From positions 39,060,001-39,124,000 of the forward strand of contig CM114271.1 in NCBI GenBank assembly GCA_050084515.1: a stretch of 64,000 nucleotides of DNA, given 5' to 3'. This stretch comes from Blasia pusilla (taxonomy: Eukaryota). The notes beneath the pieces are model-generated. The model was not told where the DNA came from. It saw nothing but the letters and a program-made list of their open reading frames with translations, and ran no database searches. Positions 1 through 57,348 of the stretch are shown one piece after another; positions within the stretch are counted from its first letter, which is position 1; each line of letters starts with the position of its first letter. Position numbers and translations under genes: made by a program.

Positions 1-1076
1 GATGGGAGAAGCGAGTGCGACGACTCCTATTGTTGATGTTCAGGAGGGGCATGTGTCGAGCACGTTGTTGGGGGAGGCCATAGTTGTGTACCGCACTCCT
101 TTATTTTCTGCTTCCGATGTTATGACGTTGGGGGGTACGCCCGCCGAGGCTTTTCGGCTGGCCGCTTCACTATGTGAGCGGAGTTGGAGTTCTGCATCAC
201 GTTGAGGTGATTTGAGGAGGAGGTGATGGACCTGCCCTTGGGGGGCGGATGCCGGGCCGTCCATGTCGATTCATGGGAGGGTGCGGCTGCTAGGATGGCG
301 GAGATGCCCGCTAGACCCGCGATAGAGCGTGCCATGGCTTCTCCTGGTGTTGTGTTGTTGGATAACCAAAGAGAGGTCTTCGTTGGTGAGTCCCGGAGGT
401 AGAGCTTTTAGTCGGTAGCGTCTTGTTGATTAGGGGGCAGCGTCATTGAGGATTGGGCTTGCGAGCCGATGTGGAGCGTTGTCCATTCGGATCGGACATC
501 CTTGGGTGGAGCAAGTACCACACAATATATCACCCGCCAGAGGAGTGGGTGGTGATTCACCCGGGATATCCTGAGATGAGTCCGTGAGTGCGCGCCAAAG
601 CGATAGTGGATCGATCAAGAGTCCCTCACGGCGTCTTGGTTGGTGGAGCGATATTGTACCCGGCGGGGTTTTCCTGGATTCTTGGGAGGAGTTCCCCTGA
701 GACCAGGATGGCGTCGGTGATGGGCGCCTTAGCTCATTACCCGTTCGATTCACAGTGCGATGATCGAGCAGCGGCCATGAGAGATAGCGACCTTAGCGAG
801 CATTTAGTAGTGCCATCACTTGGCCTAGTGATTTGATTGAGGACATGTCCATCTGAGGATACTCCGTTCTTGACATTTCTATGGAGAGAGTGTTATGGTA
901 TTGCATCATTCCGTGGAGAGAGGTCTGTGGGACTCGAGAGCTTCAACGATTGGCGGATGAGCACGAGGCGTGGAGCGGCGTTTGCACCAGGCGTGACCGA
1001 GGAACCGAGGTAGCGAGGGAAGTGCTGATGACACCCTTGGATACCACACCCATTGTGTGGTGTACCGGAGAGGGTA

Positions 1077-1975
1077 TTCGAGTGTTAGATCTCTTTGGAG
1101 GGATTAGCACCAGGTTAGCTTCTTTGTTTTGAGTGCGAGTACAACAATACTGTATGTGGAGAGTGATGATGTTGCGGCGTGTCTCACTACGACATGTGGC
1201 GCAATTATGCCTCGTTTTCCCGACTTATTATCTGCGCGTCAGCGATCTGAGTACGAGTTCCCCTCTTGAGGATATTTTGTTGTTGGGGGCGCAGGACTTA
1301 GAGCGGGTAGGGACCATTGATTTGGTCATTGCGGTTGGCCATGTCGGGGCCAATCGAGTGCTCGATGAGGACGGGTTGGTGACACTCGGTCAGTTGTTTT
1401 GGGAGATGTTGAGGGTCTTCGGGATTTGAGAGCACGGTCTCGTTCTCGGCCTACATTCTAGAGAATGTGCCGATCTTAGGAGACTCAGTCACGGGTGGTG
1501 AGTGCTCATCAGTGCGTGCTGGATCGGCCAAGTGTTCTTGGATGTGGCGAGTGTAGGTTCTAGAGCCCATCGCTCGCGTCTATGGTGGACCAACTTGGTG
1601 CCCCATGCGGTGTTATGGAGGGCGTATCGAGTGGAGCGCCCCTCCCATTTGTTAGTGGATTCCATTTTGGATCCAGGTTGTCGATCACGAGCGGTGAGGC
1701 ACGATGATCGACCACCGTTGACGTGGAGGTAGGTAGGTGCGGGCGGCCTTGCCCAGTTGTGAGTTTTCCGCTTCTGTGCATACAAGGAGGCCGGTCCTGG
1801 CTTGGTTTGGGATGACCAGGTTCAGCGGTTGGTGGAGCCAACGCCCGACGAGAGAGAGCGAGCAATGGGATTTCCCACAGGAGTGACGGCAGTACCATCA
1901 GTGTGAGAGGCATCACGACGCCATGTCTTGGGTCAGCGATGGACTGAAGCGCTTGACATGGATCCTCACTTGGGA
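1077..1975 (+). pseudogene. DNMT3-like C5 cytosine methyltransferase domain in pol of copy 1 (frameshifted)
   Basis: Motif I IRVLDLFGGIST; IDLVIA followed by a frameshifted WPC; ENV codons at ~1462; DVASVGSRAHRSRLWWTN; ERAMGFP. Confidence 0.88.
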
Positions 1976-2379
1976 GTGGTGAGCGGCGTCATATGAGATC
2001 GCTGATCGAGATCACGGGTTGCATTGGTGAGCCCCATGCCCTACCGAGAGACGGTGGAGGCAAATGGGTGGGGGCGAGACCGAGGAGATCTACGCACCAC
2101 GGGAGATCGGAGAGACACCCTTGGACTTCTTGGGATGTTTTGCAGTGCACGCAAGGAGATGATAGCCACAACATTGAGCGTGGTTTGCAACGACGTGGAG
2201 GAGATCGAGTTTGCATTTGGTCAGAGGAGAGCGAGAGTGTTGTTGTTCGAGATGGGGTTGCACCATAGCAACCACCGATACCAGCGCGGAGAGTCCTACC
2301 GTAGTCACGATGGAGACTTGGGAGATATGGGCCCTAAGTTGTGGAGGAGGAGAGCGGCGCCGAATACATCGGTTCCTTA

Positions 2380-5330
2380 GTAATTATAGGAGCGCTGCGT
2401 TTAGCATGGAGGATTTGGGCATTTGAAGGGACCAGGGATCCGCATTGAGTTGTCGAGTGATATGCCGATCTTCCGCGACCCTACAAGTGATATGGAGAGG
2501 GCTCGATTGAGTAGGAGCGCACTTGGTGAGCGAGACTAGTGGAGATGTCGCATGGGGAGTATGCATTTGCCCCGTCATGCCCGCCAAGAAGGATGTGCAT
2601 GGCAACCGGCTGGGCGGATAGGCGGATGTGTGGGGATTACCAACCTATCAATCGGCAGACAAAGTCCGATAGGTATGCCATGCCCACCCGTGAGAGATCT
2701 TTCGATTGGTCACGCAAAGGTCTTGATTCATTGGATTGCGAGCCGGATACCATCCGCCTATCGATTGGAGGACAAGCGAAAAGCGGCATTTTGGGGCATC
2801 AATCCTCACGGGAAGGATTGTTTGTACCCGTGGCGGTTCTTACCATTTGGGTTAAAGAACGCCCTGGCTGAGTTTCGAGAGGGTCATGGATAGGATCTTG
2901 GGTGGTCCGGATTTTGCTAGGTGTTATATTGATGACATCGTAGTCTTTAGCGCCACGGTTGAGGAGCATGAGCAACATCTAGAGGAGGTGTTTCGACAAT
3001 TGCAATTACATGGGCTGAAGCTACATCCGGCAAGTGCAAGTTCTTCTACGACCAGATTGAGTACTTGGGTCATACGATATACCCATGGGGCCTTGGTGTT
3101 TAGTAGACGAAGGTAGAGGCTATCTCACGCATTCCACGCCCTCAGATGTGAGCCGTGTTCGCGCATTCATCGGATTGGCGAACTTCTATCGGCGATCGTC
3201 AAGGGATTGATTCGATTGCGAAGCGGCAGTGACCTTGCTGACCAAGGTGGATCACGAGTGGCACAGGGGATGAGCAGGGAGCGAGCATTTCGATTGCTCA
3301 GGACGAGTTGGCGTCGCACCCATCTTGAGGAGACCGTCGGGCGTCCTTTCGATTGCACGATTGGAGGATGTTGGGGCTTGGAGCGGTGCTCACCCAAAGC
3401 ATGATCATGAGGGTAGAGAGTTCGTGGTGGCTTACGCTAGCCGCTCAAACAACGGCAGGTAGAGGCGGCTCGTATGAGGGTGAGTGCTTGGCTGTGGTGT
3501 GGGCTGTCGCGCATTTCAGGTGTTACTTATTCGGCAACCCCTTTACCATCATCACTGATCATCAACCACTGAAGTGGTTGATGGAGTCCGACAAGCTTAC
3601 AGGGAAGCTTGCAAGATGGGCTCTGTTGTTGCAAGAGTATGATTTTCAGGTGGTACATAGACCTGGGACGCTCAACCATGATGCAAATGGGTTGAGTCGT
3701 AACCCATGCCCGAGTCAGCGAGATGTGACTGGTGCTCGATGGCATGGAGAGAGTGATGAGGAGTCGGTGCCAGGATGGCACGCGTCAGCCTATTTAGGCA
3801 TGTTGGATATGGAGAGCTAGAGTGTGGAGACTTCGATGGCGAGGTCTAGTGGAGAGTCCTTGGATCCCGAGGCCAGTGAGGACACGACAAGTAGTCAAGA
3901 TATTCATGATGATGGAGTAGTCTTAGAGTACCTTCGTACTGGCAGCCTTGCGAGCACCATGGATGCTAGAGAGCGGGATCGGATCCTACAGCGGGCCAGA
4001 CGGTTCCGTTGGGAGGGGACACATGTTTTGAGGGTTTGGAAAGATGGCAGAGTACGCGTAGTGCCGCATCCTTCGCAGAGAGCACGACTAGTGGAACATG
4101 CCCACGAGGAGTTGGGTCACTTTGGGGTGAAGCGGACGTATAGCTTGCTCGATTCGTATTGGTGGCGAGGCATGCAGACCGGCGTTCAGCAGATTTGTTG
4201 CCAGGTGCATGGTGTGTGATCGGGTCCGAGCATCGTTCAATGCTCCGACTCCGATTGCATCCATTACCGATCATGGGCTTAGGGTATAGATGGATTTTGG
4301 ATTTTGCAGACCTTTGCCCTTGACGGAGCGTCCACGTCGTTATGTGTTGGTGATGGTGAGCACTTCTCGAAGTGGATCGAAGTTGGTTGCATTGCACGAC
4401 AAAGCGAGTGAGGGAGTAGCTTATGCCTTCCTTGACAGAGTCGAGTCATTATGACGCCGGCCGGTGGTGTTGACGGACCAGGGTACCGAAGCGTGGTGAG
4501 TTCCAGGCCTTGTGTGATGGCGTTGATCGACCACCGCGACGACGACCGCGAGATCATCCCGAGGCGGATGGACTAGCGGAGAGTTGTCTGAGCGGTGAAG
4601 AGGATTTACGCAAGTATGGCTTGCAGAGAGGTCACCTAGAGATTGGGACCTCCGGTTGCCATGGTTGGCAATGGAATACAGATTCAGTGGCGGGCATCCT
4701 GGCGTCTTTTTCACCGTACTTGCTACTTTATGGCGAGAGCCATATTTACCTGCGGCCATTCGTCGAGATCTTTGGTGAGTCTTTGGACCTTGATGACCCG
4801 GATGTATGGGTGCGAGCATGTTCTCGGAGGGCTGAGTTATTTCGAGAGTGATGCCCATGGCGTTCGAGAACTTGGCGATTGCACAAAGATCGGGATACGT
4901 TGAGGTATGCGACTATTCGGGTGGTGGTTATCGACCAACTATCCCGGAGGTTTGATTAGGGAGATTATGTCTACTTGCAGCGAAGAAGACACCCACGCGT
5001 TGGATATGATGCAGGCGCACTATCCCCGAGAGTGCGTGACATTTTGCCATCGGGTGTTCTCTTGCTGGAGGGACGCGATGGTATGGTATGGAAGGACCAT
5101 GTGCATAATTGTGCGCCATGTCACCTTCCTAACATTGATGGTACAGTAGATCCGAGCTTAGCAATAGTTCCTATAGGCTTGCGTTGTATGTTGTGTGGTT
5201 CGCGTGGTGTGGGCGATGCTAGTTGTGATGGGTGTTCGAGAGGATGGCATATGGCATGTTTGACGCCACCTCTCACTAGGGTTCCTCGTGGGGCGATGGA
5301 TGTGTCCCAGGATGTACATAGAGTAGGTAG
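2380..5330 (+). pseudogene. pol: RT-RNase H-integrase-PHD part of pol, copy 1, many frameshifts
   Basis: ORFs 2539-2893, 2886-3116 (YIDD), 3353-3820 (RNase H), 3824-4219 (integrase Zn finger), 4510-4851, 4975-5445 (PHD). Confidence 0.92.
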
Positions 5331-5501
5331 TTCTACATTCCGACTTGTGTCTGTGACATGGATGACAAGAAGGCGACTAACGATGGGGCCACATGAGCAC
5401 CCGGCCTTCTTGCTCTTAGCATCCGAGAGATGTATGTCATGGTAGGTAGGGATAGATGGCTATCTGGAGTTAGAGGGACCTAACCACCAACTAGGGGGGC
5501 G

Positions 5502-6272
5502 ATTGGAGATATTTTGGTACTTCTTGTCTCGTTGTTTGGATGCCATGAGTTAGCATGGGATCATGCGTGTTTGTGTGTGTGTTCGGTGACAGCGATGTAT
5601 GTTGTGTAGCGATGTGTATGCGCACGACAACTATCACGTCTTTTAGGATAGATCGGTGAGATCTAATAGAGCGCCTTCGTGAGTAATGGAGGACACGCTC
5701 AATAGGTTGCGAATGACCTGCTGAGGCCCCGGGAAACCTGAGAGAGCCGGTTTCCCCTTCGCTTCGGCTCATTTGGAGCCATATTAAGGAACTTACTATT
5801 TTAGGTAAGTATCATTTTGAGTATATGATCGACTTTCTATTTTTGGTAAGTGGCCCTTGACCTCCTATATCAGGTCAAGAGCCAAGGAGGTGACTTGGGA
5901 GAATAGGTTACCATGGAGAGAGCTTGGGAGAGGGGAGGGGTATACCTCAAGGAGAGAGAGCTTGAGAGCTCATTCTCTCTTTATTGAACCTCTTGGCATG
6001 AGGCGGCGGAGCTATGGTACCTTGCCTTGTGAGTGTAACCCAAGCCTCTCATTAGGAGAGTGGGTTTGGTTTGACATGAGAGAGAGTGCACACCTTTGAG
6101 AGCTATGGTGTGAGATGGTGGAGAGAAAGATTGGATCCTACTTTATTGGAGATATTTTGGTACTTCTTGTCTCGTTGTTTGGATGCCATGAGTTAGCATA
6201 GGATCATGCGTGTTTGTGTGTGTGTTCGGTGACAACGATGTATGTTGTGTAGCGATGTGTATGCGCACGACA
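5502..6272 (+). repeat. Terminal repeats of copy 1: B1 5502-5629, A2 5632-6144, B2 6145-6272; purine tract 5493-5501
   Basis: The 128 bp B unit (attggagatattttggtac...gcgcacgaca) occurs twice around a ~513 bp A unit. A matches 14111-14626 (reverse complement), the solo starting at 54351, and 58110-58625. Confidence 0.93.
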
Positions 6273-7465
6273 CGTGCCGGACGTTTGTAGGGGCTTACAT
6301 CTTGCCCACATCCGGCCCGTGGAGGCCTAGAGCCCGCGTCAAACCCGCATCTCGCACACCTGTCGCTCCTTTGCCCGTATCCTTCATCTGAGCTCACAAA
6401 GGAACAAATCCGTCGCATGGTACTCAAAGAGGGCGTAGGTGGATACAATATAACAAAGACTGATGGGCAACCCGTACCATGCACGAGAGTGAAGGGAGTA
6501 ATCATGTTAGACACAAAATATTTTTCTTGCTGCTCGTAGAGGAGGAAACATTTTCTTGTTGCCCGATTGCTACATTTCAAGCAGGGAAGTGTTTGCAAAT
6601 CAAGTAGGAACTCTCCAATAATAATATAGATTTGCAAGTTACTTCAATTAGAGGTGATGTTGTGCAATTAAAAAGATATATTTATTTACGCCAATATTTT
6701 AAACTAATTTATCATCATTTTGTCAATGTACAATCTTTATTTTGGTATCCACCATGGAAATACTTCCCATTATAAAGGAGATTTGGATGGATTCGAAATG
6801 AGTAAAATGAAATGAGATTTGAAAGAGTCTATGAAATAGCTGAAATGGATATAAAGTAAAAAATTGAGCTTAAGATTTGTTGAAATGTAGGGATTATATA
6901 TGTGCCACGGCCAGCGAAGTGGCTAGAGCATTCATGGTTGCATTCAACTTTAATAAACCACTTAGCAAACATTCATGCAATTTGCTATCGCATTTTTATG
7001 ATTGCATTTAGCAACTTCATGTGCAAATCTAAATTTCTCTTGATCAACATTTCTCCAAGTAAGGATGCTCGTTTTAGCAAAAAAAATGGTGTGACATTTA
7101 TATTATTATTGAAAACCCCATGTATGCAATAAAACAAAAAAATTAGAATAGAAGACAAAATAGTAACACGAGTACAATTTTGTATGTTATTTCACGTTTG
7201 ATGTTTTGGAAAATGAATTTGAATAGGGTAATAATTTAATCAATTAATTAACAATTTAATTAGTGGATGTTATGTTGGTGAGACCAATGAAGTAAAAATT
7301 AAACATTATGTAAAATTTTATGGAAAAATGGAGATAATGGGGAATAAGATATTATTTAAACTTTAATTGAAGAGTGGAATCTTATTATTCTTTTAAAATA
7401 GTGGAAGTTATATTTGAGTTTTGGAATACCACATATTCCTAAGTTATTTAAAGAAAATTTCCTGT

Positions 7466-8753: not shown

Positions 8754-10244
8754 TTACCTGTTTTTTAGCATGTACTTGCGGATTTGGAAGGCTCCGCCAA
8801 TCAAGGATGAGACCAGGAATAAAGTGTTGAAGCGCCGAGTGAAGTCCGCCACTCGACCCACCGATATCATTACAATTCGCTTGATGCTGTTTCTCTTGTT
8901 GTGCGCATTCTTCACGAAATCTGGGGACGCCTCCTGCACTCGTCTGGCAAAAATCAGGCAGGACACTCGGCTCTTCAATCCCCGCTTCACCGACTGCTTC
9001 TTCTTGGTCGGCATCCGCTGAATCCTTGTATCAACTTCCTTTAACCACTTCTGCTTCTTTGACGGTGACTGTCTATTGAGCCATTTCACGTTCAGAGAGG
9101 CGTGGCACACTTCAACCTTGGGGGGGCGGGGTATGTCGTTCGAAGTCGACTCTCCAGCGTCCACCATCGCCTTCGTCATCTCGGAAGATTGGATGGCGAA
9201 AATGTTGTCGATGTAGCTGAGAAGCGTGTGTTCTCTAACTGCATCCAGGGAAGAAATTCCGAAGTGAAAGTTGAGATGATGCTCTGTAGTCCACTTGTTC
9301 ACATCGGCGTACTCGAGCTTGCTGGTTTCCGTATCCAGGAGGACCATGTGGCCGGCGAAAGCGTAGCCGTAGCCGGATTGGTGAGAGAGAGCTAGAGCTA
9401 GCGCGCGATGGATAACGAACTGGAGAATTCCTGGGACCCATCTCAGCGCCTGAGATCCTAATGCCACCAGAGGGATACGTTCCGGCTTGATCCGGAGGCG
9501 AGGGTTCACTAACTGGACGACTAGGAAGATGACTCTGGAAATGGATACCAAATCACCCCACGGACCTGCATGAAGGCCATACCACACGGAGTAGAGAGTG
9601 TAGCATAGCGGCATTAATTTCGGCACAATGTCGTTGCGAGAAACGATGTGCACAAAATGGTGCTTGTAGCGCTTATTGATGTAGCGAGCCAGCTCCGTGT
9701 CTGCGAAAAATGGACACCCGAACGTGTAGCATTGAATTTGTTCATGGCACCACTTTCCTGTGGCCTCCAGTAGTCTCAGAGCCAGTAGGGACGCCACCGC
9801 GCCCCCTAATGAATGCCCTGTCAGGACAATTCTCTCGCCCCTGACCAGAAGCCTGCGAAAATATTCGAGTGGGATAGTCTTCGCCCGGTCTAGAAATCCT
9901 GCGTGCGCGGATCCAACTGCAAGGCTCATGGTTCTGTGAAGCAAGTGCAGATCTGTAAGAGCATCGTACACATCTACAGTCCCTCGGCACGCAACTACTA
10001 TGTGCCCTCCCGTCAAACTTCGCACTGTGATCATGGGTTGCTTACAGGTGGAGAAGCCGTTCGCTTGAAGCTCTTCTCCGCACACAAATTCATATTTAGC
10101 CGAAGGAGGCAGTCCATACTCTCTATCCATCACCCTCAGCTCTTCGGCTGGATCCTTTGCGTAGCTCACTGCTGAGAGTATGACCGCATCTACCAGCCAA
10201 AGAGGATGCCGATCATCCCGGATGATCTTTCCTAACGATGCCAT
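8754..10244 (-). CDS. Class 3 lipase (alpha/beta hydrolase) family protein; extra 5' exons possible
   Basis: Intact 496 aa ORF with VACRGT, AHAGFL, nucleophile elbow TGHSLGG, YTFGCP and NDIVP. GT donor-like sites upstream (~10317, ~10902) hint at unresolved 5' exons. Confidence 0.88.
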   Translation of the reverse strand: MASLGKIIRDDRHPLWLVDAVILSAVSYAKDPAEELRVMDREYGLPPSAKYEFVCGEELQANGFSTCKQPMITVRSLTGGHIVVACRGTVDVYDALTDLHLLHRTMSLAVGSAHAGFLDRAKTIPLEYFRRLLVRGERIVLTGHSLGGAVASLLALRLLEATGKWCHEQIQCYTFGCPFFADTELARYINKRYKHHFVHIVSRNDIVPKLMPLCYTLYSVWYGLHAGPWGDLVSISRVIFLVVQLVNPRLRIKPERIPLVALGSQALRWVPGILQFVIHRALALALSHQSGYGYAFAGHMVLLDTETSKLEYADVNKWTTEHHLNFHFGISSLDAVREHTLLSYIDNIFAIQSSEMTKAMVDAGESTSNDIPRPPKVEVCHASLNVKWLNRQSPSKKQKWLKEVDTRIQRMPTKKKQSVKRGLKSRVSCLIFARRVQEASPDFVKNAHNKRNSIKRIVMISVGRVADFTRRFNTLFLVSSLIGGAFQIRKYMLKNR

Positions 10245-11765
10245 GCTGCCGATTCAGAGGCGATCTGCCCTTTCTTGCTGGTACGATATCACAGTCGTCA
10301 AACCCGATTCAACTTACCATCGGTTGCAAAACACAATTCAACTTCAGTGTCGTTGTCATGTGTTTCAGCTTCCGGCAAACGCTGCACCTGTCATAAACTC
10401 TGCGCACCTCTCGGGGCAGGATCAACCCTCAAATCACCTGGCACAGAGTGCACGTCCCATCCTGCCCAATCATTTTCGTCTGCAAGGCTCCTACAACGGC
10501 TGGATTCAACCCAAGAAACCTTCCTACAGCGTGGATGGGACGTACAGAAAAGTGTCTCGTTTACGATTCTGCTAATTTCTCCGCTGCATCCTAAAATCTG
10601 CACACCCCACTGTACACCTTCAGCAGGAATCCCAGTTTCTTGCCCAATTTGAAGTGCCTTCGTAGTCGGAAAGTCGGACAATTTGCCAGGGAAGAATCAC
10701 TCTCTTCCCATCGCCAACTGCATCGCGAGAACGAATAAAGTAAAGCAGATGGAACAACTCTTTCCAACAGCACAAAGTCAATGAGGCTATAGGGCAGAGT
10801 GCCGAGACATGATGAAAAACTTTACCAATTCAAATTGTCCAGCACCGTCTCGCGGTTCGATCAGGCACATATATTAACAGTATCCACATTACAACAACTC
10901 ACTTCAGGATAATAACTTTGAGGGCTTCCACTTCCGTTCACGCTGGGTCTGGTAGTCCTTGGTACGGCGTCTAGATGAGCATTCAGCACAAAGAATCCGA
11001 CATACCTGACAGAGCGATCCCCATCTGCACAATCGTCTCTCCGAATCGTCTCTGCCTGCAGTCCTGAGCCCGCCTTCGCGGCACCGGCGGCTTCCTGCCA
11101 AGCTCTTGGATGGCTACTGCGGAACAGTCCATCTCCTCGGCGTCACACACATGTTCTTCTATCAATTGAAGAAGAGAAGGGGAGAGATGTGCGAGTCAGC
11201 CTGCGGAAGAGATCTCCAGGTGAGGGGAGAACTAACAGATTTCGCTCCTGCAAGCGCTAGATAAGAGAACGAGCGATTGAGGCCTCAAGAAGCGCGGGTG
11301 CTACCTAGCGAAGCGTGTCTCGCGTGACACGAGCTCACGATGGGCTCGAACTTCGAGAGAGCGGAGTTGGGTCCACAGCAAAGTCCTTAGGTGTCATGTG
11401 GTCTTCCGCAGCCTAGTTCCGCAAAACTGTGTCTTTTCCTCTCAAAGCTGTTTCTTTTTCTCTGCTTCTCGCACCCACACTAAAGTGAACAGGCAATCGG
11501 ATCGGTGCCATGACTGCCATCCATTCTTCCGCGCCGCCCCTTTCTCAAGGAGAGAGAGTCAATTAGACATAGTTCATTCGGAAAGCGTATTGAATCCAAA
11601 AGTGTGGATTCTCTTAAATTTATTAGTTAGTGCCCTTATTAGTGCCCTCCCGTCGTTTTTTTCCCTCTTCGTATAGACTATCCACGTGTCTTACACGTGT
11701 TTATAAAATTCTCTCTCCTCAGAACCCTCTCAAAGGGCCGCACACTCGTTACACTTATCCTCTCC

Positions 11766-12021: not shown

Positions 12022-14942
12022 GGGGGAAGAGAAAGAGAGTCACGATCGGGAAAGCGATCTGCACAATATACGGCGTACGCCGTGCGACTCCATTCGAGCC
12101 CGCGACCCTATCTCACGCGACTTTCCTCATAGATGTCGGCCGTCGTTCTGTCAACACGTTGTAGCAGCAGCCGTCGATGTCACCTGGATCTGCCAACACA
12201 TGTTTCTCATGGCTGACTGCTACGATAGTCTCTTACTATAATTAGGAGACTAACTCGGGATGTTTTGAACTGGATTCCCCGAATCCCGAACCGTCTGCCC
12301 ATCGCGACACCACGATTCCCTGAGTTTTTGTTGTACCACGCGTCCTTTCTCAATTCGGAATCCAAACACTGTAAAAAATGCGTCAACACTCATCCTCGCT
12401 TACCATTCGAGATCGTAGGATGCAGTTCCTCACGGGGCCAGTAAGGCTTCCCACGTGTCCCATAAAATAAATAAAATAAGATTATCATGATGGCTCACTA
12501 AACATTTAATACGCCACGTGGATACTACCTCAACGGTGAATTAGAACCCATGCCCACATGACAAATGTCCGTCGATGAGATTACGGACGGGCCTTGTGTA
12601 AGTGGTCACTGAGATATCGATCAGGGAGAGGTCGGGACTAGCAAGTGAGGCTACGGCAGGACCACAACCACGGAAATATTGAACCTCTTACTTATTTAAA
12701 CTTAGTTAGTATTGAAAAAGTTTATCTATACTATAGGGGGGGTTACTTCTTATTTGGGAAGTAACCCCTCCTCACACTATAATGTGTGGAGGAGTGGAGT
12801 GAAACAAGTCTCGTTTCCTTCATAGGTTCTGTTTTGAATCTTTGGCTCTTGCAGTCGATTGCATTAATGGTAGAGCAAGTTCCTGAAGATTTATGAGTGA
12901 CGCCTAAAATGAGGGAATGTGCGGAAAGGGTCAAAAGGTTTGTTGTTCTCTTGGGCTTTTCCATAGGGACGTGCTTGGCTTCGGATTCTCAAGGCTCGGA
13001 AAATCCCACAATTTGTGACCCTGACGATGGATTCTTACTGGGATTTATAATTGCAATCATTTCACAAGATTTGGTTGACGTTTCATTTTTGAAACGTCCT
13101 CTTACCGACAAAATTCTGGACTTTGGAGTAACAAAATCAAATTTACGACTAGACTTATGTGATCGGTCGTAACATGAGAGGCAATAGCGTACATCCAATG
13201 AAAGAATACCGCATGTGGGAATGCTATTGTCCGGATTCTCTTCTGATGTGGTTCTTGTCACAAGAAAAAACAAACCATGTGCGGGGCCCTAGAGATCGAC
13301 CGATCCATCACAGGTTTTGTTGATGTGCCTTCCGCGTACGTTTGGGCGAGAGGGTGCCTGTGCTATTGTGGCGCGGTTCTTCTTTCCGCATTTTTGACTT
13401 ACAGCAGAACCTAATTTCAGCCGTCGTAGTAATTTCTTTTTGCATATTCTTCAACGTTTCCAGGTCTCTCATTCAGCTTAGCTAAGCTTTCTTTCCTCGA
13501 CGTCAATCGGGGGAAGAAGCCAAAATTCCGTGAGTGGATGGGTGGGTGACCGTGGGTCATTACACTGGTCACATCGTCATTTTGGAGCACTCGAACTCTT
13601 GGTAGGTTGTGCCTTCCTGATGAGCGTTCTAGAACAGCGATCCGTGCATCGTATTGCAATCCAAGTAGAAAATTTTCCCGGTTGGAGTTAGTCTAGAGAT
13701 GTGAAGGTCATTTATCTTCAATCAGGATCATTTTGTGAGAAATATTTCTCTGCACTTCCCCTAATTACGCAGATTTGCTCTACTCCATGTTGAGCAAAGG
13801 TCAATGATCTTGCTGTGCATCTCCTCTGCTGAGGAATGAAATCTGAGCATATGCAAGCTTCCCCGTTGTCAAAATCCAAAGGGTGGAGATTAGGGCGATC
13901 TTCCATTTTGATGACTTGCCTTAATTTTGGCTCTCGAGGATTCTGTAAACTCTTAGCTGTGGAATTTGAGTCCTATGAGGAGTGTCATGCGCATACACAT
14001 CGCTATACAACATACATCGCTATCACTGAACACACACACAAACACGCACGATCCCATGCTAACTCATGGCATCCAAACAACGAGACAAGAAGTACCAAAA
14101 TATCTCAAATTAAAGTAAGATCCAATCTCTCTCTACACAATCTCACACCATAGCTCTCAAAGGTGTGCACTCTCTCTCATGTCAAACCAAACCCACTCTC
14201 CTAATGAGAGGCTTGGGTTACACTCACAAGGCAAGGGACCATAGCTCCGCCGCCTCATGCCAAGAGGTTCAATAAAGAGAGAATGAGCTCTCAAGCTCTC
14301 TCTCCTTGGGATATATACCCCTCCCCTCTCCCAAGCTCTCTCCATGGTAACCTATTCTCCCAAGTCACCTCTTTGGCTCTTGATCTGATGTAGGAGGTCA
14401 AGGGCCACTTACCAAAAATAGAAAGTTGATCTTATACTCAAAATGGCACTTACTTAAAATAGTAAGTTCTTCAAAATGGCTCCAAATGAGCCAAAACGAA
14501 GGGAAAACCCGCTCTCTCAGGTTTCGCGGGGCCTCAGCAGGTCATCCTCGACCTCCTAGGCCTGTCCTCCACTACTCTTGAAGACGCTCTACTAGATCTC
14601 ACCGATCTATCCTAAAGGACGTGACAACTATTGTGCGCATATACATCGCTACACAACATACATCGCTATCACTGAACACATATACAAACACGCACGATCC
14701 CATGCTAACTCATGGCATCCAAATAACGAGACAAGAAGTACCAAAATATATCCAATCGCCCCCTAGCTGGTGGTTAGGTCCCTCTAACTCCAAATAGCCA
14801 TCTATCCCTACCTACCATGACATACATCTCTCGGACGCTAAGAGCAAGAAGGTCGGGTGCTCATGTGGCCACATCGTTAGTCGCCTTCCTGTCATCCATG
14901 TCAGAGAAAAAATTCGGGATCGAAACCTACCTAGTATCTCCT

Positions 14943-15764
14943 CTATGTACATCTGGGACACATCCATCGTCCCCGAGGAACCCTAGTGAGAGGTGGCGTC
15001 AGACATGCCATATGCCAACCTCTCGAACAACCATCACAGACTAGCATCGTGACCGCACCACAGGCATAACCACACAACAAACAACGCAAGCCTGCAAGAA
15101 CTACTGCTAAGCTCGGATCCAGTGTACTATCAATGTTAGGAAGGTGACATGGTGCACAATTACGCACATGGTCCTTCCATACCATACCATCGCGTCCCTC
15201 CAGCAAGAGAACATCGGATGGCAAAACGTCACGCACTCTCAGGATAGTGCGCCCTGCAGTCACATCCAACATCGTCGGTGCCGTCTGCTGCAAATAGACA
15301 TAATCTCCCTGATGAAACCTCTGGATAGTTGGTCGATAACCACCACCCCGAATAGTCGCATACCTCAACGTATCCCGATGTTGCGCAATCGCCAAGTTCT
15401 CGAACGCCATGGGCATCACTCTCTGAAATAACTCAGCCCTCTGAGAACATGATCGCACCCATATATCTGGGTCATCAAGGTCCAACACCTCATCAGCATC
15501 TCGACGAATGGCCGCAGGTAAATCTGGCTCTCGGCCATAAAGTAGCAAGTACGGTGAAAAAGACGGTAAGGATGCCTGCCTGCTGAATCTGTTTCCCATC
15601 GCCAACCATGGCAACAAGAGGTCCCAATCTCCTAGGTGACCTCTCTGCAAGCCATACTTGCGTAAACCCCTCTTCACCGTTTGCACAACTCTCTCCGCTA
15701 ATCCATCCGCCTCGGGATGATCTCGCGAAGTCGTGCGGTGGTCGATCAACGCCTGATCACTCAA
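14943..15764 (-). pseudogene. pol: Integrase C-terminal part with C4HC3 PHD finger
   Basis: HPEADGLAERVVQTVK and SPYLLLYGRE, then CLLCG...CDGCSRGWHMACLTPPLTRVPRGRWMCPRC. Confidence 0.93.
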
Positions 15765-15794
15765 GGCTTGGAACTCAACATGAAACTCGGTACC

Positions 15795-18013
15795 CTAATC
15801 TGTCAACACCTTAGCCGGTGCGCCATAATGACTTAGCACTCTGTCAAGGAAGGCATAAGCTACTCCCTCACTCGCTTTGTCAGGAAATGCAACCAACTCG
15901 ATCCACTTCAAGAATTGCTCGACCATCACCAACACATAACGACTGTGACGCTCCGTCAAAGGCAAAGGTCCTGCAAAATCCAAACTCCATCTATACCCTA
16001 AGCCCATGATCGGTAATGGATGCAACTGTGGAGTCGGAGCATTGAACGATGCTCGGACCCGATCACACACCATGCACCTGGCAACAAACTGTTGAACGTC
16101 AATCTGCATGCCTTGCCACCAATACTGAATCTGGAGCAAGCTATACGTCCGCTTCACCCCAAAGTGACCGAACTCCTCGTGGGCATACTGCACTAGTCGT
16201 GCTCTCTGCGAAGGATGCGGCACTACGCGTACTCTGCCAGCCTCCCAAACCCTCAAAACATGTGTCCCCTCCCAACGGAACCGTCTGGCCCACTGTAGGA
16301 TCCAATCCCGTTCTCTAGCATCCACGGTGCTCGCAACGCTGCCCGTACGAAGGTACTCCAAGACTACTCCATCATCATGAATATCTCTACCACTTGTTGT
16401 CTCCTCACTGGCCTCGGGATCCAAGGACTCTCCACTAGACCTCGCCATCAAAGTCTCCACACTCTGGCTCGCCATAACCAACATGCCTAAATAGGCTGAC
16501 GCGTGCCATCCTGGCACCGACTCCTCATCACTCTCTCCATGCCATCGAGCTCCAGTCGCATCTCGCTGACTCGAGCATGGGTTACTACTCAACCCATCTG
16601 CATCTTGGTTGAGCGTCCCAGGTCTATATACCACCTGAAAATCATACTCCTGCAACAACAGAGCCCATCTTGCAAGCTTCCCTGTAAGCTTGTCGGACTC
16701 CATCAACCACTTCAGTGGTTGATGATTAGTGATGATGGTAAAGGGATTTCCGAATAAGTAACACCTGAAATGCGCGATAGCCCACATCGCAGCCAAGCAC
16801 TCACCCTCATACGAGCTGTACTTCGCCTCTGCAGCGTTGTTCGAGCGTCTAGCGTAAGCCACCATGAACTCTCTATCCTCTCATCATGCTGGGTGAGCAC
16901 CGCTCCAAGCCCCAACATGCTCCAATCTGTGTGCAACTGGAAAGGACGCCCCCTGATCGGTCTCCTCAAGATGGGCGCAGACGTCAACCTGTCCTTGAGC
17001 AACTGAAATGCTCGCTCCTGCTCATCCCCCCAGTGCCACTCGTGATCCACCTTGGTCAGCAAGGTCAGTGGCTTTACAATCGAAGTGAATCCCTTGACGT
17101 ATCGCCGATAGAAGTTCGCCAATCCCATGAATGCGCGAACACGGCTCACATCTGTAGGGCGTGGAATGCGTGAGATAGCCTCTACCTTTGTTTGATGAAC
17201 ACCAAGGCCCCTTGGGTATATCGTATAACCCAAGTACTCAATCTGGTCGTAGAAGAACTTGCACTTGCCTGGATGTAGCTTCAGCCCATGTAATTGCAAT
17301 CGTCGAAACACCTCCTCTAGATGTTGCTCATGCTCCTCAACCGTGGCGCTAAAGACTACGATGTCATCAATATAACACCTAGCAAAATCCAGACTAGCCA
17401 AGATCCTATCCATGACCCTCTGAAACTCATCCGGGGCGTTCTTTAACCCAAATGGTAAGAACCGCCACTGGTACAGACAATCCTTCCTGTGAGGATCGAT
17501 GCCCCAAAATGCCGACTTCTGCCTGTCCTCCAATCTGATAGGCAGCTGATGGTATCCGGCTCATAAATCAATGAATCAAGACCTTTGCGTGATCAATCGC
17601 ATCAAAGATCTCTCAGGGGTGGGCATGGCATACCTGTTGGACTTCGTCTGCCGATTGATAGGTCGGTAATCCCCACACATCCGCCTATCCGTCCAGTTGC
17701 CATGCACATCCTTCTTGGCGGGCATGATAGTGGCAGATGCATATTCCCCATGCGACATCTCCACTAGTCCTGCTCTGACCAAGTCTTGGCTACTACTCTG
17801 AATCAAAGCCCTCTCCATATCACTGTACCTGTAGGGTCGTCGAAAGATCGGCGTATCACTCGACAATTCAATGCGGATCCCTGGTCCCTTCAGCGTACCC
17901 AAATCCTCCATGCTAAACGCAAAGCAGCTCCTATAATTACTAAGGAACTGATGTATTCGGCGCCGCTCTCCTCCTGTCAACTTAGGGCCCATATCTGGCT
18001 CCCAAGTCTCCAT
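15795..18013 (-). pseudogene. pol: RT, RNase H and integrase N-terminal/core region of copy 2
   Basis: RMCGDYRPIN, LPFGLKNAP, CYIDDIVV, FQLHTDWS, YEGECLA, HEEFGHFG...CMVC, WSLDFAGP. Confidence 0.95.
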
Positions 18014-18329
18014 CGTGACTACGGTAGGACTCTCCGGCGTGGGTATCGGTGGTTGCTATGGTGCAACCCCGTCTCGAACAACAACACTCGGCCGCTCTCC
18101 TGCAACCAACTGCAAACTCTAATCTCCTCCACGTGCAGTGCCCGAAACCACGCTCAATATTGTGGCTATCATCTCCTTGCGTACCTGCAAAACATCCCAA
18201 GAAGTCCACGGGTGTCTCTCCCGATCTCCTCTGGTCTCGCCGCCAGCCACTGCCTCCACCGTCTTGGTAGGCATAGGGCTCACCAACGCAACCATTGTGA
18301 TCTGTCGCGATCTCATACGACGTTGCTTA

Positions 18330-18969
18330 GCCACTCCCAAGCTGAGGATCCATGTCAAGCAGTTCAGGTCCATCGCCTGACCCAAGACATGGCGTCGTGA
18401 TGCCTCTAACACTGACGGTACTGCCGTCACTCCTGTGGGAAATCCCATCGCTCGCTCTCTCTCATCGGCGTTGGGCTCCACCAACCGCTGAACCTGGTCA
18501 TCCCAAACCAAGCCAGGACCGGCCTCCTTGTATGCATAGGAAGCAGGAAAACTCACAAACGTGGGCAAGGCTGCCCTCGGCCTACCTATCATGTTGACCA
18601 CAATCAACGGTGGTCGATCATCGTGCCTCACTGCCTGTGATCGGCGACCTGGATCCATAATGGAATCCACTAACAAATGGGAGGGGTGCTCCACTCTCGC
18701 ATACGCCCTCCGTAACACCGCATGGGGCACCAAGTTGGTCCACCATAGACGCGGGCGATGGGCTCTAGAACCTACACTCGCCGCATCTAAGAACATTGCT
18801 TGGCCGATCCAGGTACGCACCTGATGAGCACTCGTCACCACCCGTGACCTAGAGTCTCCTAAGATCGGCATATTCTCCAAAATGTAGGCTGGAGAACGAG
18901 ACTGGTGCTCCTGCAACTGCCGTAAGACCCTCAACATCTCCCAAAACAACCTGAACCGAGTGTCAGCCA
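18330..18969 (-). pseudogene. C-terminal half of the DNMT3-like methyltransferase (motifs VI, VIII, IX, X)
   Basis: LFWEMLRVL, YILENM, DAASVGSRAHRPRLWWTNL, ERERAMGFPTGVT, RRHVLGQAMD, all in ORF 18119-19021. Confidence 0.92.
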
Positions 18970-19544: not shown

Positions 19545-22500
19545 ATGGTTGTTTTCTATAGTGGAATTAATTGGTACTTCCAATTGAAGAGAGATGTAGG
19601 CAAAATTGCAATTCTAACCTTGGTACTAACAAGCATGTTTCATATTGTTTACACGGAAGAAATCCCAAGTCTAGGTCCCAAAAGGCAGATTCCAAGACGT
19701 TTGAGTAGCGAGGGAGCAGGATCTTCAATCCCTTCAAAGAAACACCACACTCGACAACGTTGTCTAGAGGAGATTGTGGATGAATCAACTGATAGATCGA
19801 GAGATTATTCAGATGAGCTACATGAATCAGATGGTGAGTTTGATGTGACAATGGAGAAGGAATCCTCTGAGTCTCCATTAGAGAACCCACCCACTATGGA
19901 TAAATCACCAACCATAGTGCCATCACCACATTATTCCAAGAAGCGAGCTAAATTGAATAGACAAAAAGTGATGCTCCGATCTTGTATTAATCTTCATTAA
20001 GTGAAAGTGTTTGATAGTATGCTATTGAGATTTATGTTTTGTAGAGTGATAGAATGCTTTATGCAACATCACTTATTTCATTTTGTGATACCTAACACCT
20101 TATGATATGAGCAGGAGGTGCCACCTGCGGTTGGTGATGTTTCCTACCGCTTGCCACAAGCCAACCAATGGCCCTTACCTCCTTTTACAGGGTTTCCACA
20201 ATGGCCTGTCTTGCCAGGTAGGTAACCAATTGCATTTTGTCTTTGAATGGTAATGATGTTTAGTGTATTTTAGATATGAAAAACTTATAACAATCTATAT
20301 GGTTCCATGTAATAGAAGTTGAATTACATTTTTTCTAATTTTGTAATGTATTTGATTGGCAAGAGGCCTTGGATCCTACTATCCATCTAATCCATACTAT
20401 GGGATGATGCCCACTCATGGCATCTCTAATCCATCACAAGGGCCCCCCACAGCAGGAAAGAGTGAAAAGTCTCTTGGACGTTATCCTAGAGGTCCTACAC
20501 CTCCCACTGGTAAGTCTCTTTTACCACAGATGCTACAACTTGAACTAGAAAACATGCAATTCTACATTTTGTTATAATTGGTATGTCCATAAGTCGATTG
20601 GGGTCCATAAAATTTTTCTCTCATAATTGGTGACGATCTTACAGCAAGCTCTAAAGCTCGACACCATCGGCGGGAAAGCCCTTAAGGAATGGAAGACAAG
20701 TACAAAGTCTCTTATCGAGAGGGGCTTAAAACCAAGAGTTGATGTTACGTCATCAGGTGAAATTGTATCTGGATGTGTTGGAAAAACAATATGGCATGAT
20801 GAATTGAAGGTTTGTGTCCTTCGCTGTTTGGACCTTAGTACACCTCATGTGGCTAAGCAATCTGAGTTTGACATCCGCACTGTAAGAATGGAGATGGATG
20901 AAGGATGGGAGTATGTTGGGAATGAGCTTAGTGAACGATTTTTTAAATCAACCTTGGCAAATATCATGAAGAGAGATAGAGCACGCTTGAAGAAACTTTT
21001 ATATTCTTCAAGGCTTAGTAAGGAATGCCCAACACCTCCAGATGTGCTTCCGGAAACTTGGGAAGCCCTCAAAATTTATTGGCTCTCACCAGAGGGAAAG
21101 GAAAAAGCAGAAAGGATGAAGATGAATAGAGGAAAGGTTGAGCACCCAAATAGAATGGGTCGAACCGGTCACAAAGGAGTCAAACTCTCCCTGGTATGTA
21201 ATTAGTTATGTTACTATGGATTTTATTCTAAATATTCAATGAAGTTTGATGCATATGCAATGTAAATGGTGAACTCCTCTCTAACATTATCTCTTCTTTA
21301 GTAGATGGATCCTTCAAGTATAGTGTTAGAGCGACATCATGCTGGTCATGAGATTGATTCATGTATATGTAGTGATTGGTTATAAACTTTTAGAAAAAAG
21401 AAAGAGATGAAAGCCCCTCATTACATGACTTGGGAGAATCACTAGGGACAGGTGAGGTTGGACCCAGTCTGGCGACTGCCGGCACCAAGGTAAATTATTT
21501 TCAGAGATCCAATATGTGTTCTAAGTTTTAATTGATTTGTCAAACTCTCCATTTGATCTCTTAACTTCATCTACACGAGTGTATCTTGTTTTAACTCCAT
21601 CACAAAGCCACTAAGCTTTCTTTGATGAAACATTTGTTGTTGCATAGGGGTCTGATTCTACTTTGACACATCGCTTCGACAATGTGGAGAAGGAGGCAGA
21701 GTCTACAAAGAGTGAGCTCAAAGCTATAAGGGAGACCTTGAATCTGATTCAAGAAATGGTTTTCAAGTTCACAAGCGAAGCATCCAAACATAATCCAACT
21801 TCCTCTACTCCTCCCTTGAATGTACATGTTACGGAGGGCCCAACAACAGAAGTTATGGATGTAGAGGTCATCATGCAAATTTGTTTCCAACACCTCAAAC
21901 ACTTCCATCCAAATCTGCTTATGTGACTTCCAATGTAGAACATCATATTGCTACTGGGGAGATATTTCTATCCTTGCAACATGAAGTGAAGGCACATGAG
22001 CCGATCTCGGGGTGAGATGCACAAGTTCAATTGATAGAGCATGATATAAAACGAGACATCCAACCAAAGCAAGTCCTTCTAAAGAAGATAAAGGAATCTT
22101 GTATGGAGAAGAAAGAGAAGATAGTTGTAAGTAGGCCTTTCTTGGAATGTTGTTCCTTTTTTGTCTTCTTGCTCCAATTGTTTTCCATGTTGATATCACG
22201 TTCACTTTAGAGATAGCTCATGTCTTGACCATGTGCATGTATTAATTGTAGACAAGACAAGCAGATATGATATTTTCTTCCACCATTCCTAAAAATGGTT
22301 GGAGCATTTTAAAGGTAATCTATATGGTTTATATGGTGATGTACTTAATTTCCTGAATGTCTATTAACCATCACTATGCCTATTTATCCAAAGTATATAT
22401 TGAGCTTTACTATCGTGTTTGTTGTTGTACTTTCATCAGCTTGTAGTAGGTGACTACGTCTTGATGAAGCAAAAAAAGAACACTCGCCAACTAGTGGGAG

Positions 22501-27877: not shown

Positions 27878-29143
27878 ATGGTTAGACTGGTTTTCCAGCT
27901 TTCTTTAGACAAGAGACGATCCTATATTTCGAGGGGTATGGATGGTTTACATGACTACACCTTGGAATTGCAGAGATTGTCCAATAGACTGGCAAAGGCA
28001 TTTGACGGGGAAGTGAATGCCGTAGAGGCTGATAGGTTGACTAAATTTTGTGCACAACAAGGTGTTAACCTGGAGAGAGCATATGTAGATCTTAAGACAT
28101 ATAAGGATGAGAAGCAGAATGTTGCAGAGTCGGCTTTCCTAGAAAGATTCTTTATAGAGTTAAGAAGTGCTCAACGTCTTTTCAAGGGACGTAGTACTTC
28201 TCTGGGGTTGACATTGACCATTCCATGTGCAATAACTTTGATTTGCGATAAGAATGTGGTAATAGGACATAACCCGAGCAATATTGTGGGAACCACTTTA
28301 CACAAAATTTTGTATTGTTATAAAATAAACGGAACCCATGGCTTTAGGGCAGAAATGTACTTTTGCATGAAGGTGTATAAGGAATCATCTCTATCAAGAT
28401 CTAGAAAATCGATGATGCGAGAGGAGTTGTTTGCGAGTATTTTACATCGCTGTGTTGTTTGCATGGTGGGAAGGTTTATCGAGGATCCACCGCGTGCCAT
28501 TTTTCCATATTGGAATGGTGGACACCTCAAAAATTGGTTGCGAGCATGCCATAACTTGAAGAACAGCGTGGATAATCCATGAGAGTTGGAAAAGATGAGA
28601 TGTCTCGCAATAGCATCAAATGTCGTCTAGCTTGTGGTTGCCATTCTTGGAACCATGGAGACAATCCACAAGCGTGGGATTTTTCATACCGACCTCCATG
28701 CTAGAAACATGTTAATCCATTTTGGATCCAACTCTAGCACATACATCGGCGTTGGAGATTGGGGGAATGCCATATGGACTGATGAAGTCTTGGAATCTCC
28801 TCATAGATGGTGGCAGCATGAACAAAAAAATCATGTTGGGCATATAGCACCGAAGTTGATAGCAGGGCCTCACGAACTCCCTTTTAGCAAGGCCACTAAA
28901 ATCTATGCCCTGGGAATGATTGTGAAGAATTTGAACTATGTGACATACAACCTCTCTATCGGGAATGCCCAAGCGAACATGAGATTTTCTTATTTGGAAA
29001 GGATTCAAAAGTGGGCATTGGCTCTGAATCCCTCTGATCGCAAAAGCTTAGATTTTCTTATTGCACATATCATAGCAAATGCAAAAGTATTAGGTGTAGA
29101 CGATGTAGATTCGGGATTAAGGCCAATAACAGTGGTAGTATGA
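27878..29143 (+). pseudogene. Divergent protein kinase-like gene with in-frame stops, inside the hAT element
   Basis: CMKVY, REE, FPYWNGGHL, IHKRGIFHTDLHARNMLI, VGDWG, HIAPKL, IYALG. ORFs 27878-28582 and 28634-29143 are in the same frame. Confidence 0.78.
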
Positions 29144-43800: not shown

Positions 43801-43976
43801 TACGATTATGCCGGTGTCGTAACTGCTTGAGTGCGCACCATCGCACTATCCGACTCATGCTCTGGCTGGAGTCTGACCACCAACTCTTGTCGAGTCATGT
43901 ACTACGTGGATGATACGCCCCCAACAGAGGTGTGTATCGGAAAGGAAAAATGCTCGATGTTGCCTTTTTGTAACCC

Positions 43977-57118: not shown

Positions 57119-57333
<215 letters not shown>

Positions 57334-57348
57334 TGACCTATGATCGTA

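Follow-up and report, generated by a model that had tools for sequence, protein, structure and literature searches.

Three decayed copies (A, B and C) and one solo repeat of a Ty3/Gypsy-type retrotransposon family lie in a 64,000-nucleotide stretch of DNA from the liverwort Blasia pusilla (contig CM114271.1 of assembly GCA_050084515.1, positions 39,060,001 to 39,124,000 of the forward strand), which we refer to as the window. The pol region of this family ends in a PHD finger, placed directly behind the SH3-like C-terminal domain (CTD) of the integrase, and the same family carries a DNMT3-like methyltransferase. We propose, with a probability of roughly 0.55, that the finger would act as a targeting or tethering module of the integrase in an element of the published Gypsy-DNMT3 kind, in the role that the chromodomain plays in chromoviruses.

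The finger is complete in copy B, which reads on the minus strand. The last frame of this copy spans 283 residues from stop to stop (14943-15794) and has the finger at its C-terminal end, followed by a single residue (14946-14948) and by the stop codon that closes pol (14943-14945). The Pfam profile PF00628 matches residues 238-282 over its full length (positions 1-47 of 47) with 38.4 bits, against a gathering cut-off of 24, and an E value of 1.2e-9. All eight zinc ligands are present in the translation, in Cys4-His-Cys3 (C4HC3) order and with canonical spacing, as is the tryptophan two residues ahead of the seventh ligand. A phmmer search of all PDB chains returned 132 PHD chains at E ≤ 1, with PHF12 as the best match (E 2.5e-16), and the Pfam matches of the finger are to single-PHD families only (PF00628 PHD, PF23011 and PF13831, with PHD-1st_NSD and PHD_2 among the names). 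The copy B finger is a real and complete PHD finger, far beyond what chance would produce. The finger of copy A (plus strand, 5185 to about 5320) keeps the first five ligands and the histidine. A base-by-base alignment with copy B reveals a 1-nucleotide (+1) insertion after the Pro-Arg-Gly codons, which shifts the frame and removes the last Cys-x-x-Cys. PF00628 reaches only positions 1-34 of 47 and, at 21.6 bits, stays under the cut-off: this finger is broken. A preliminary description of the same DNA had placed a complete finger at both sites. Its coordinates for copy B, 14943-15090, are correct (on the minus strand) and the profile match bears out the domain there, but for copy A completeness has to be withdrawn.

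The last 130 residues of pol (14946-15335, minus strand) were modelled with AlphaFold2 from a 40-row alignment, with a mean predicted local distance difference test score (pLDDT) of 84.5. The model consists of a five-stranded SH3-like barrel, with its strands within residues 12-62, followed by the finger. Confidence is 84-93 in the finger and ranges from 57 to 94 over blocks of the barrel stretch, with the lowest values at residues 21-30. The position directly after the integrase CTD is that of the chromodomain in chromoviral integrases, as the preliminary description had recognized. In a Foldseek comparison with the PDB, the finger superposes on solved PHD fingers with a root-mean-square deviation (rmsd) of 0.6-1.7 Å over 45-52 columns at 38-50% identity. 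The matches include DPF3b, DPF2, MOZ/MORF, BAZ2A, BAZ2B, ATXR5, UHRF1 and CHD5; BHC80 fits more loosely (rmsd 2.6 Å). The top two-domain Foldseek matches are Tudor-PHD proteins (PHF1, MTF2 and the TTD-PHD of UHRF1), a likeness that we rejected as coincidental at an rmsd of 13-14 Å, since here too a barrel of SH3/Tudor type adjoins a PHD but the arrangement agrees only loosely.

Conservation of the finger and position of the methyltransferase

Among longer proteins, 249 relatives of the last open reading frame (ORF) of copy B were found, and the counts given here cover the best 120 of these 249. PF00628 is present in 117 of the 120, and all eight zinc ligands are kept in 115; four of the five others are cut short, truncated or frame-shifted, the fifth being P0046. 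The residue two before the seventh ligand is tryptophan in 105 of 116 aligned family fingers and phenylalanine in the remaining 11. When the last 130 residues were compared with 1.84 billion representatives, 6234 proteins matched at E ≤ 1e-3, 840 at 1e-10 and 22 at 1e-30, and nearly all of the best 150 span both the SH3-like domain and the finger (residues 2-129). A scan of metagenome contigs yielded 69 loci, all of which have a recognizable finger region at the end of pol. By a tblastn-based count the finger is unbroken in 17 of them; the other 52 show stops, lost ligands or truncation, as does the rest of these decayed copies. The finger is thus far from absent in most members, a possibility that the preliminary description had raised.

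A FastTree phylogeny of the integrase-to-PHD region (116 rows, midpoint root) consists of two clades, each with 99% local support, that share 43-49% identity. Clade S (streptophyte-type) comprises 32 rows including the window copy, and its named members come from Marchantia and Klebsormidium. Its finger lies at the extreme C-terminus, with a tail of at most 15 residues in all relatives, and the DNMT is N-terminal of the reverse transcriptase (RT) in all three rows that are long enough (the window copy, P0018 and P0019). Clade C (chlorophyte-type) comprises 84 rows, and the six members with a name, from Pleodorina, Tetrabaena (two), Haematococcus (two) and Chromochloris, are chlorophyceans without exception. 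Here the order is RT, RNase H, DNMT, integrase and PHD, followed by 24-432 further residues (P0045, P0056, P0058, P0084 and others), with the internal DNMT present in 47 rows. Because its position differs between the clades, the DNMT appears to have moved, or to have been gained twice, within one PHD-bearing Gypsy lineage.

The pairing of the two domains is seen in both protein and metagenome sequences. Although precomputed Pfam lists give PF00145 for only 6 of the 120 relatives, phmmer with the family DNMT detects a DNMT-like region in 50. An RT match is present in 24 metagenome loci, 20 of which have room upstream; tblastn places a DNMT before the RT in 15 of these 20, and decayed DNMT motifs can be made out by eye in one further element (L017/L018). 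In L022/L024 and L028, a DNMT was looked for upstream of the RT and none was seen. Because many loci are assemblies of the same element, the DNMT-bearing loci correspond to about nine distinct elements. Intact relatives exist as well: P0301 is a single 2811-residue ORF with DNMT, RT, RNase H, integrase and PHD, P0018 is a continuous ORF with DNMT and PHD, and L003 is a whole intact element with three open frames. In P0077, P0078 and P0050, the family phmmer search detects no DNMT, and the roughly 460-490 residues from the RT motif to the integrase zinc motif leave no room for one; all three keep the PHD and are nested beside DNMT-bearing rows with 97% and 100% support. PF00145 is also missing from P0307 (2092 residues), for which Pfam alone was tried. 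Since DNMT-less relatives keep it, the PHD does not depend on the DNMT. We conclude from these comparisons that the finger is, on each of the counts, a constant of a large, old green-lineage family, and that its pairing with a DNMT is the rule and not a one-off. The earlier statement that finger and DNMT3 share a polyprotein holds for the family, as the single ORF of P0301 demonstrates, but for no copy in the window, where truncations, stops and frameshifts intervene.

The enzyme was recognized in the window through its relatives and a family profile, because the window fragments have no Pfam match even at E ≤ 10. A whole, open DNMT is found in none of the copies. Motif I and motif IV, with its Pro-Cys, are readable in copy C, motif IV of copy A only in a shifted frame, and motifs VI, VIII and IX/X in copy B when it is aligned with intact relatives. 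The copy B fragment matches DNMT3A chains only in the PDB, weakly (E 0.012), and the first 29 PDB matches of the DNMT of the intact relative P0018 are DNMT3B, DNMT3C and DNMT3A (about 1e-6). A family profile of four sequences, the window fragment included, has 29 best PDB matches that are all DNMT3A, DNMT3B or DNMT3C (E 2.4e-17 to 3.6e-14). Next come M.HaeIII (1.4e-10), tobacco DRM (1.7e-10), M.HhaI, DRM2 and DNMT2, and DNMT1 is absent from the PDB matches of this profile. The DNMT of the chlorophyte-type relative P0056 by itself has no PDB match at E ≤ 0.01, so that it is assigned to DNMT3 through the mixed profile and through its homology with the enzymes of the other clade. Judged by its sequence, the family encodes a DNMT3-type C5 methyltransferase inside its coding region, in line with the preliminary description.

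A stop codon separates the protease (PR) and DNMT from the RT, RNase H, integrase and PHD in the window's clade. At homologous sites in copies A and B, an in-frame TAG is followed by CAACCA, which conforms to the stop-CARYYA context; in tobamoviruses, UAG with CARYYA behind it serves as the type I read-through signal (PMC5382211). In the intact element L003, ORF2 (PR and DNMT, 728 residues) ends with TAG, ORF3 (RT to PHD, 1047 residues) continues in the same frame, and the next six bases are CAA TCA (4661-4669). Of 21 rows examined, 16 have a stop followed by CAA-YCA where the boundary is projected, although the adjacent protein is only 29-57% identical (29% for winA, 40-57% for the others); by our own estimate, the chance expectation is about 0.05 per 600-nucleotide search region. 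Over the whole window TAGCARYYA occurs five times, against 3.4 expected; as this is no enrichment, the weight of the motif lies in its conserved position only. P0301 and P0018 have a sense codon at the homologous position. The stop lies just before the start of many relatives, which explains why these are called as proteins of 1033-1116 residues. If the stop is leaky, PR-DNMT would be the abundant product and RT-integrase-PHD the rare one, and DNMT and PHD would be joined in one polypeptide for a short time only. Besides the conserved stop, a stretch of more than 1100 residues (RT, RNase H and integrase) separates the two domains in the window's clade, and DNMT and PHD are probably separate mature proteins there. 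Elsewhere in L003, gag (ORF1, 504-2606) and PR-DNMT (ORF2, from 2477) overlap by 130 nucleotides (2477-2606) in different frames, which suggests a frameshift between gag and PR besides the stop between DNMT and RT.

Predicted ligand and role of the finger

Several of the matching structures contain histone H3: entry titles record BAZ2A with an unmodified H3K4 peptide, UHRF1 with the unmodified H3 N-terminal tail and ATXR5 with histone H3. The 60 PDB phmmer matches listed of the 132 include PHF12, CHD4/5, the first PHD of KDM5A, KDM5B and Lid, KAT6A/B, DPF2/3, PHF21A, ATXR5, AIRE, BAZ2A/B and UHRF1, most of which we take to read the N-terminal tail of H3 in its unmodified or K4-unmethylated state. 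Neither these 60 nor the 45 Foldseek matches with E ≤ 0.001 include a chain named ING, BPTF or TAF3. In methyl-lysine cage readers, a tryptophan stands two residues before the zinc-binding histidine. In this family the residue at that position is glycine in 110 of 116 members, and the residue directly before the histidine is tryptophan, tyrosine or phenylalanine in 106 of 116. Readers of the H3K4me0 subclass lack an aromatic cage and engage unmodified K4 and R2 through acidic residues. In the family consensus, Asp or Glu stands before the first cysteine and in the loop before the third, sites at which acidic residues contact H3 R2 and K4 in solved readers. The family finger is likely to be a reader of the K4-unmethylated type of H3 N-terminal tail, which is less certain for the window's liverwort subclade. 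That the nearest solved relatives read the unmodified H3 tail fits the earlier suggestion of an H3K4me0 ligand.

We envisage that working members of the family would produce gag, a PR-DNMT3-like part and an RT-RNase H-integrase-PHD part, with a tobamovirus-type read-through stop between DNMT and RT in the window's clade. Processing by the protease would leave the PHD on the mature integrase, right behind the SH3-like CTD. There the finger would bind the H3 N-terminal tail, in the manner of the unmodified or K4-unmethylated type and not of the K4me3 aromatic-cage type. In analogy to the chromodomain of chromoviruses, this contact would hold the intasome on nucleosomes that lie outside active promoters. 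The upstream part would yield the DNMT3-like enzyme as a separate, more abundant product that acts on element DNA independently of the finger.

Several observations weigh against this proposal. In the window's liverwort subclade the acidic consensus residues are mostly replaced, which makes the ligand of this subclade uncertain. Some of the nearest solved fingers accept or even favour other states: H3K4me1 is bound by Ehd3, for example, and an H3K4me3 peptide by UHRF1. In the continuous-ORF relatives P0301 and P0018, DNMT and PHD could remain one protein. All three window copies are pseudogenes, and nothing works there now. Finally, the clustering of copies in a transposon-rich window could equally reflect retention instead of targeting.

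The finger might bind a different partner, for example a histone with methyl or acyl marks, nucleic acid or a chromatin protein of the host, and serve nuclear import, the recruitment of host factors or a different choice of target. We consider this unlikely, although the liverwort subclade, which lacks most of the acidic consensus residues, speaks for it, as do solved relatives bound to PAF15, to Stella or, within double fingers, to acylated H3K14. The extra residues behind the clade C finger would likewise suggest further interactions. H3K4me3 cage readers are, by name, missing from the PDB and Foldseek matches listed, and the glycine two before the histidine occupies the place of the cage tryptophan, both of which argue against this reading.

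Direct coupling of reader and writer appears improbable. The finger would then be the element's own ADD-like guide, reading H3K4me0 and directing or activating its DNMT within an unprocessed polyprotein or a complex. Animal DNMT3 uses an H3K4me0-reading ADD, and the finger resembles readers of that type. DNMT and PHD also occur together in 50 of the 120 best relatives, in 15 of the 20 metagenome loci with upstream room and in the element with decayed motifs. The continuous ORFs of P0301 and P0018 hold both domains, and coupling would be conceivable especially in clade C, where the DNMT is directly N-terminal of the integrase-PHD. However, several findings make this the less likely reading: in the window's clade the stop is conserved in position and more than 1100 residues intervene, the PHD persists where the DNMT is missing, the protease lies upstream of the DNMT so that processing is expected, and the finger is, by Pfam, a single canonical PHD and not an ADD. 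The interpretation in the preliminary description, by which a reader and a writer carried on one element could couple insertion-site choice to methylation, is supported in part.

It is very improbable that the finger was picked up from a host gene as a neutral passenger and plays no part in the life cycle of the element: the window copies are dead, the finger is broken in 52 of 69 metagenome loci and PHD fingers are reported in many unrelated transposon classes (PMC8557442, PMC6673714), but the broken fingers sit in copies that are broken throughout, the clades include long uninterrupted ORFs (P0301 with 2811 residues, L003 ORF3 with 1047), and the ligands, the tryptophan and the hydrophobic and aspartate residues around the third ligand are kept across clades that share less than half of their residues.

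The integrase-targeting proposal could be extended to a single history of finger and enzyme, which we hold only tentatively and regard as rather doubtful. One ancient Gypsy lineage, from chlorophytes to liverworts, would have kept a DNMT3-type writer and an H3-reading PHD for hundreds of millions of years, with the writer before the RT in the streptophyte-type clade and between RNase H and integrase in the chlorophyte-type clade, and with an excess of PR-DNMT in the former owing to tobamovirus-like read-through at UAG/UAA-CAA-YCA. The finger would steer integration to K4-unmethylated chromatin and the DNMT would methylate the new copy, a self-silencing 'stealth' coupling.

Transposons with their own chromatin tools show mobile DNA negotiating with host silencing. 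If the finger reads H3K4me0, it would represent a second, independent solution to chromatin-guided integration beside the chromovirus chromodomain, and would naturally parallel the way in which animals join ADD and DNMT3. The family is large, and the intact L003 and P0301 are usable material for assays of binding, read-through and methylation. Taken over the whole family, the picture is directly testable and of moderate interest: the PHD on the integrase is universal, the DNMT is near-universal and takes one of two positions, and the context of a presumably leaky stop is conserved.

Element copies in the window and their surroundings

Pieced together from the copies, the element is about 10.2 kb long and consists of an A repeat, gag, PR, DNMT, RT, RNase H, integrase, SH3-like CTD, PHD and the repeats B-A-B (Table 1). 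The layout is A-coding-B-A-B: copies A and B show the same B-A-B order, and A1 stands ahead of copy C. The A repeat begins with TG and the B repeat ends with CA. These TG..CA ends and the 4-bp duplication at the solo A+B repeat are in keeping with integrase-type insertion. The solo A+B repeat resembles a solo long terminal repeat (LTR) formed by recombination between A repeats. The remnants at 55053-55412 and 57320-57608 (both minus strand) are A-like as well but have diverged further.

Table 1. Features of the Gypsy-DNMT3-type copies, with positions counted from the first letter of the window
Feature	Position	Strand	Evidence
Copy A, cut by window start: PR tail, DNMT, RT, RNase H, integrase, broken PHD	1-6273	+	
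Copy A DNMT, motif IV out of frame	about 1082-1933	+	
Copy A TAG CAA CCA site, homologous to that of copy B	2266-2274	+	
Copy A repeats	B1 5502-5629, A2 5634-6145, B2 6145-6272	+	
Copy B, 5'-truncated inside DNMT (~18965), decayed	13982-18965	-	blastn against copy A
Copy B 3' repeats	B2 13983-14110, A2 ~14111-14632, B1 14633-14756		
Copy B PHD finger, complete, end of pol	14949-15083	-	Pfam, PDB phmmer, AlphaFold and Foldseek
Copy B integrase SH3-like beta-barrel CTD, directly upstream of PHD	15150-15302	-	AlphaFold2 model; matches of the CTD+PHD module
Copy B start of DDE core, continuing past in-frame stop 15795-15797 into last ORF	15798-15995	-	PF00665, 23.8 bits
Copy B integrase HHCC zinc domain	16050-16214	-	PF17921, 62.7 bits
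Copy B RNase H	16644-17032	-	PF17917, 86 bits; PF17919
Copy B reverse transcriptase	17219-17557	-	PF00078, 87.6 bits
In-frame TAG then CAACCA (stop-CARYYA read-through context), between PR-DNMT and RT-RNase H-integrase-PHD	18050-18058	-	Copy B
Copy B DNMT3-like C-terminal half (motifs VI, VIII, IX/X); N-terminal half gone by truncation	18272-18949	-	
Solo A+B repeat, TG...CA ends, TCAT on both flanks (4-bp target-site duplication)	54353-54990	+	blastn, 94.7% to 5634-6272
Copy C, truncated after DNMT motif IV	58112-63466	+	
Copy C 5' A repeat (A1)	58112-58625	+	
Copy C gag with two zinc knuckles	60204-62228	+	
Copy C protease	from 62387	+	
Copy C DNMT N-terminal part, motifs I and IV	63149-63466	+	

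Copies A and B are inverted, tail-to-tail, and share 89% identity across 5035 nucleotides (blastn). They differ at 375 of 4842 aligned positions (251 transitions, 79 at CpG), with 97 indel runs; for copy A relative to copy B, 73 indel runs were counted. The ORFs of copy B are interrupted by in-frame stops at 18119-18121, 18056-18058, 17576-17578, 17561-17563 and 15795-15797, and a change of tblastn frame marks a frameshift near 16880. On its coding strand the element is strongly enriched in G (31-33%) and poor in C (20-22%), and with a GC skew of about +0.2 the copies stand out in the skew profile. The region of strong negative GC skew at 42-48 kb holds a protease-like remnant (43659-45315, minus strand), which matches residues 963-1130 of P0301 at 34-35% identity, and, at 42364-43178, short fragments that resemble the B repeat. 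The remnant probably goes back to an older relative from the same superfamily that has undergone internal deletion.

The window is a transposon-rich stretch and, with three decayed copies and a solo repeat in liverwort DNA of this kind, is in itself ordinary. Between the inverted copies A and B lies an intact class-3 lipase ORF of 499 residues (8757-10253, minus strand; PF01764, 90.9 bits). Its identity is 80% with a Marchantia polymorpha protein, 77% and 76% with those of two Riccia species and 75% with that of Calypogeia, as befits a liverwort other than M. polymorpha. A Gypsy fragment unrelated to the present family, with RT, HHCC and rve, occupies 49293-51022 (minus strand). An En/Spm-type transposase fragment, hAT-like DUF659 fragments and a protein-kinase fragment are found at 20627-21202 (plus), 35518-36364 (minus) and 28631-29140 (plus), respectively.

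Comparison with known systems

The closest described element is KnitGypsy-Dnmt3 of Klebsormidium nitens, for which the legend of Fig. 4c in de Mendoza et al. 2018 (PMC5890265) gives a DIRS-like A-coding-B-A-B layout with Gypsy domains. Both have the Gypsy domain set, a non-rearranged DNMT3-type domain inside pol, the same repeat layout and a streptophyte host. In our FastTree phylogeny the K. nitens integrase-PHD protein P0008, which might come from such a DNMT-bearing element, falls into the same 99%-supported clade as the window copy. The window element differs in its liverwort host and in that its copies are pseudogenes. The main text of PMC5890265 contains no mention of a PHD finger, nor do three of its supplements, the figures and the largest supplement being outside that search. 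Later papers refer to "streptophytes (Gypsy-DNMT3)" (bioRxiv 10.64898/2026.05.21.726589; PMC12344493).

Transposons of green algae are reported to carry PHD fingers commonly as accessory domains (PMC8557442). PHD and INT are listed among the pol domains of Gypsy-7a_cRei (PMC9940879), and REM1 and Chlamys Penelope-like elements also bear a PHD (PMC9940879, PMC8557442). These elements share the accessory PHD on retrotransposon proteins, and the descriptions in those two papers list no DNMT. A comparison of PHD fingers with chromodomains as possible guides of integration in transposons has also been made (PMC6673714). The Gypsy-DNMT3 family and the PHD as an accessory domain of green-lineage transposons are therefore already known from the texts of these papers (PMC5890265; PMC8557442, PMC9940879, PMC6673714). 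In the literature searched, figures apart, we found no description of PHD and DNMT in one Gypsy element, of the chlorophyte-type architecture or of the read-through stop; discussion of the family there is limited to the DNMT, to which the integrase finger would add a testable targeting module. EpiLTRs are LTR retrotransposons reported to carry a chromodomain, DAM and a DNMT (bioRxiv 10.64898/2026.05.21.726589). Like the present family they combine a chromatin reader and a DNA methyltransferase in one LTR element; they differ in using a chromodomain as reader, in their DNMT4-related enzyme and added adenine methylase, and in their hosts, Cymbomonas and Euglena.

The finger itself resembles H3-tail PHD fingers (KDM5 PHD1, BAZ2A/B, PHF21A/BHC80, ATXR5, CHD4/5, DPF3/KAT6A and UHRF1), with 32-50% identity, E values down to that of the PHF12 match and the rmsd range of the Foldseek superpositions. 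Those readers are host chromatin regulators, and the window's subclade lacks much of the acidic surface of the family consensus. The relation to the ADD of animal DNMT3A, DNMT3B and DNMT3L would be a functional analogy only, in that a zinc-finger reader of H3K4me0 is tied to a DNMT3-type enzyme. The ADD is a composite of a GATA-like and a PHD-like finger immediately N-terminal of the catalytic domain within one polypeptide, whereas the element has a single canonical PHD at the far end of pol, behind a stop, that persists without the DNMT.

The proposed role is best compared with that of chromoviruses, in which a chromodomain at the integrase C-terminus directs integration (Gao et al. 2008, as cited in PMC6673714). 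Pfam finds no Chromo match in the ORFs of the window or in the domain lists of the 120 relatives. In both systems a small domain, a histone-tail reader in chromoviruses and a predicted one here, stands right after the integrase CTD at the end of pol, where it would tether integration to a chromatin state. Unlike chromoviruses, the present family would use a PHD zinc finger for this purpose, and its predicted ligand is the unmodified N-terminus of H3 instead of H3K9me.

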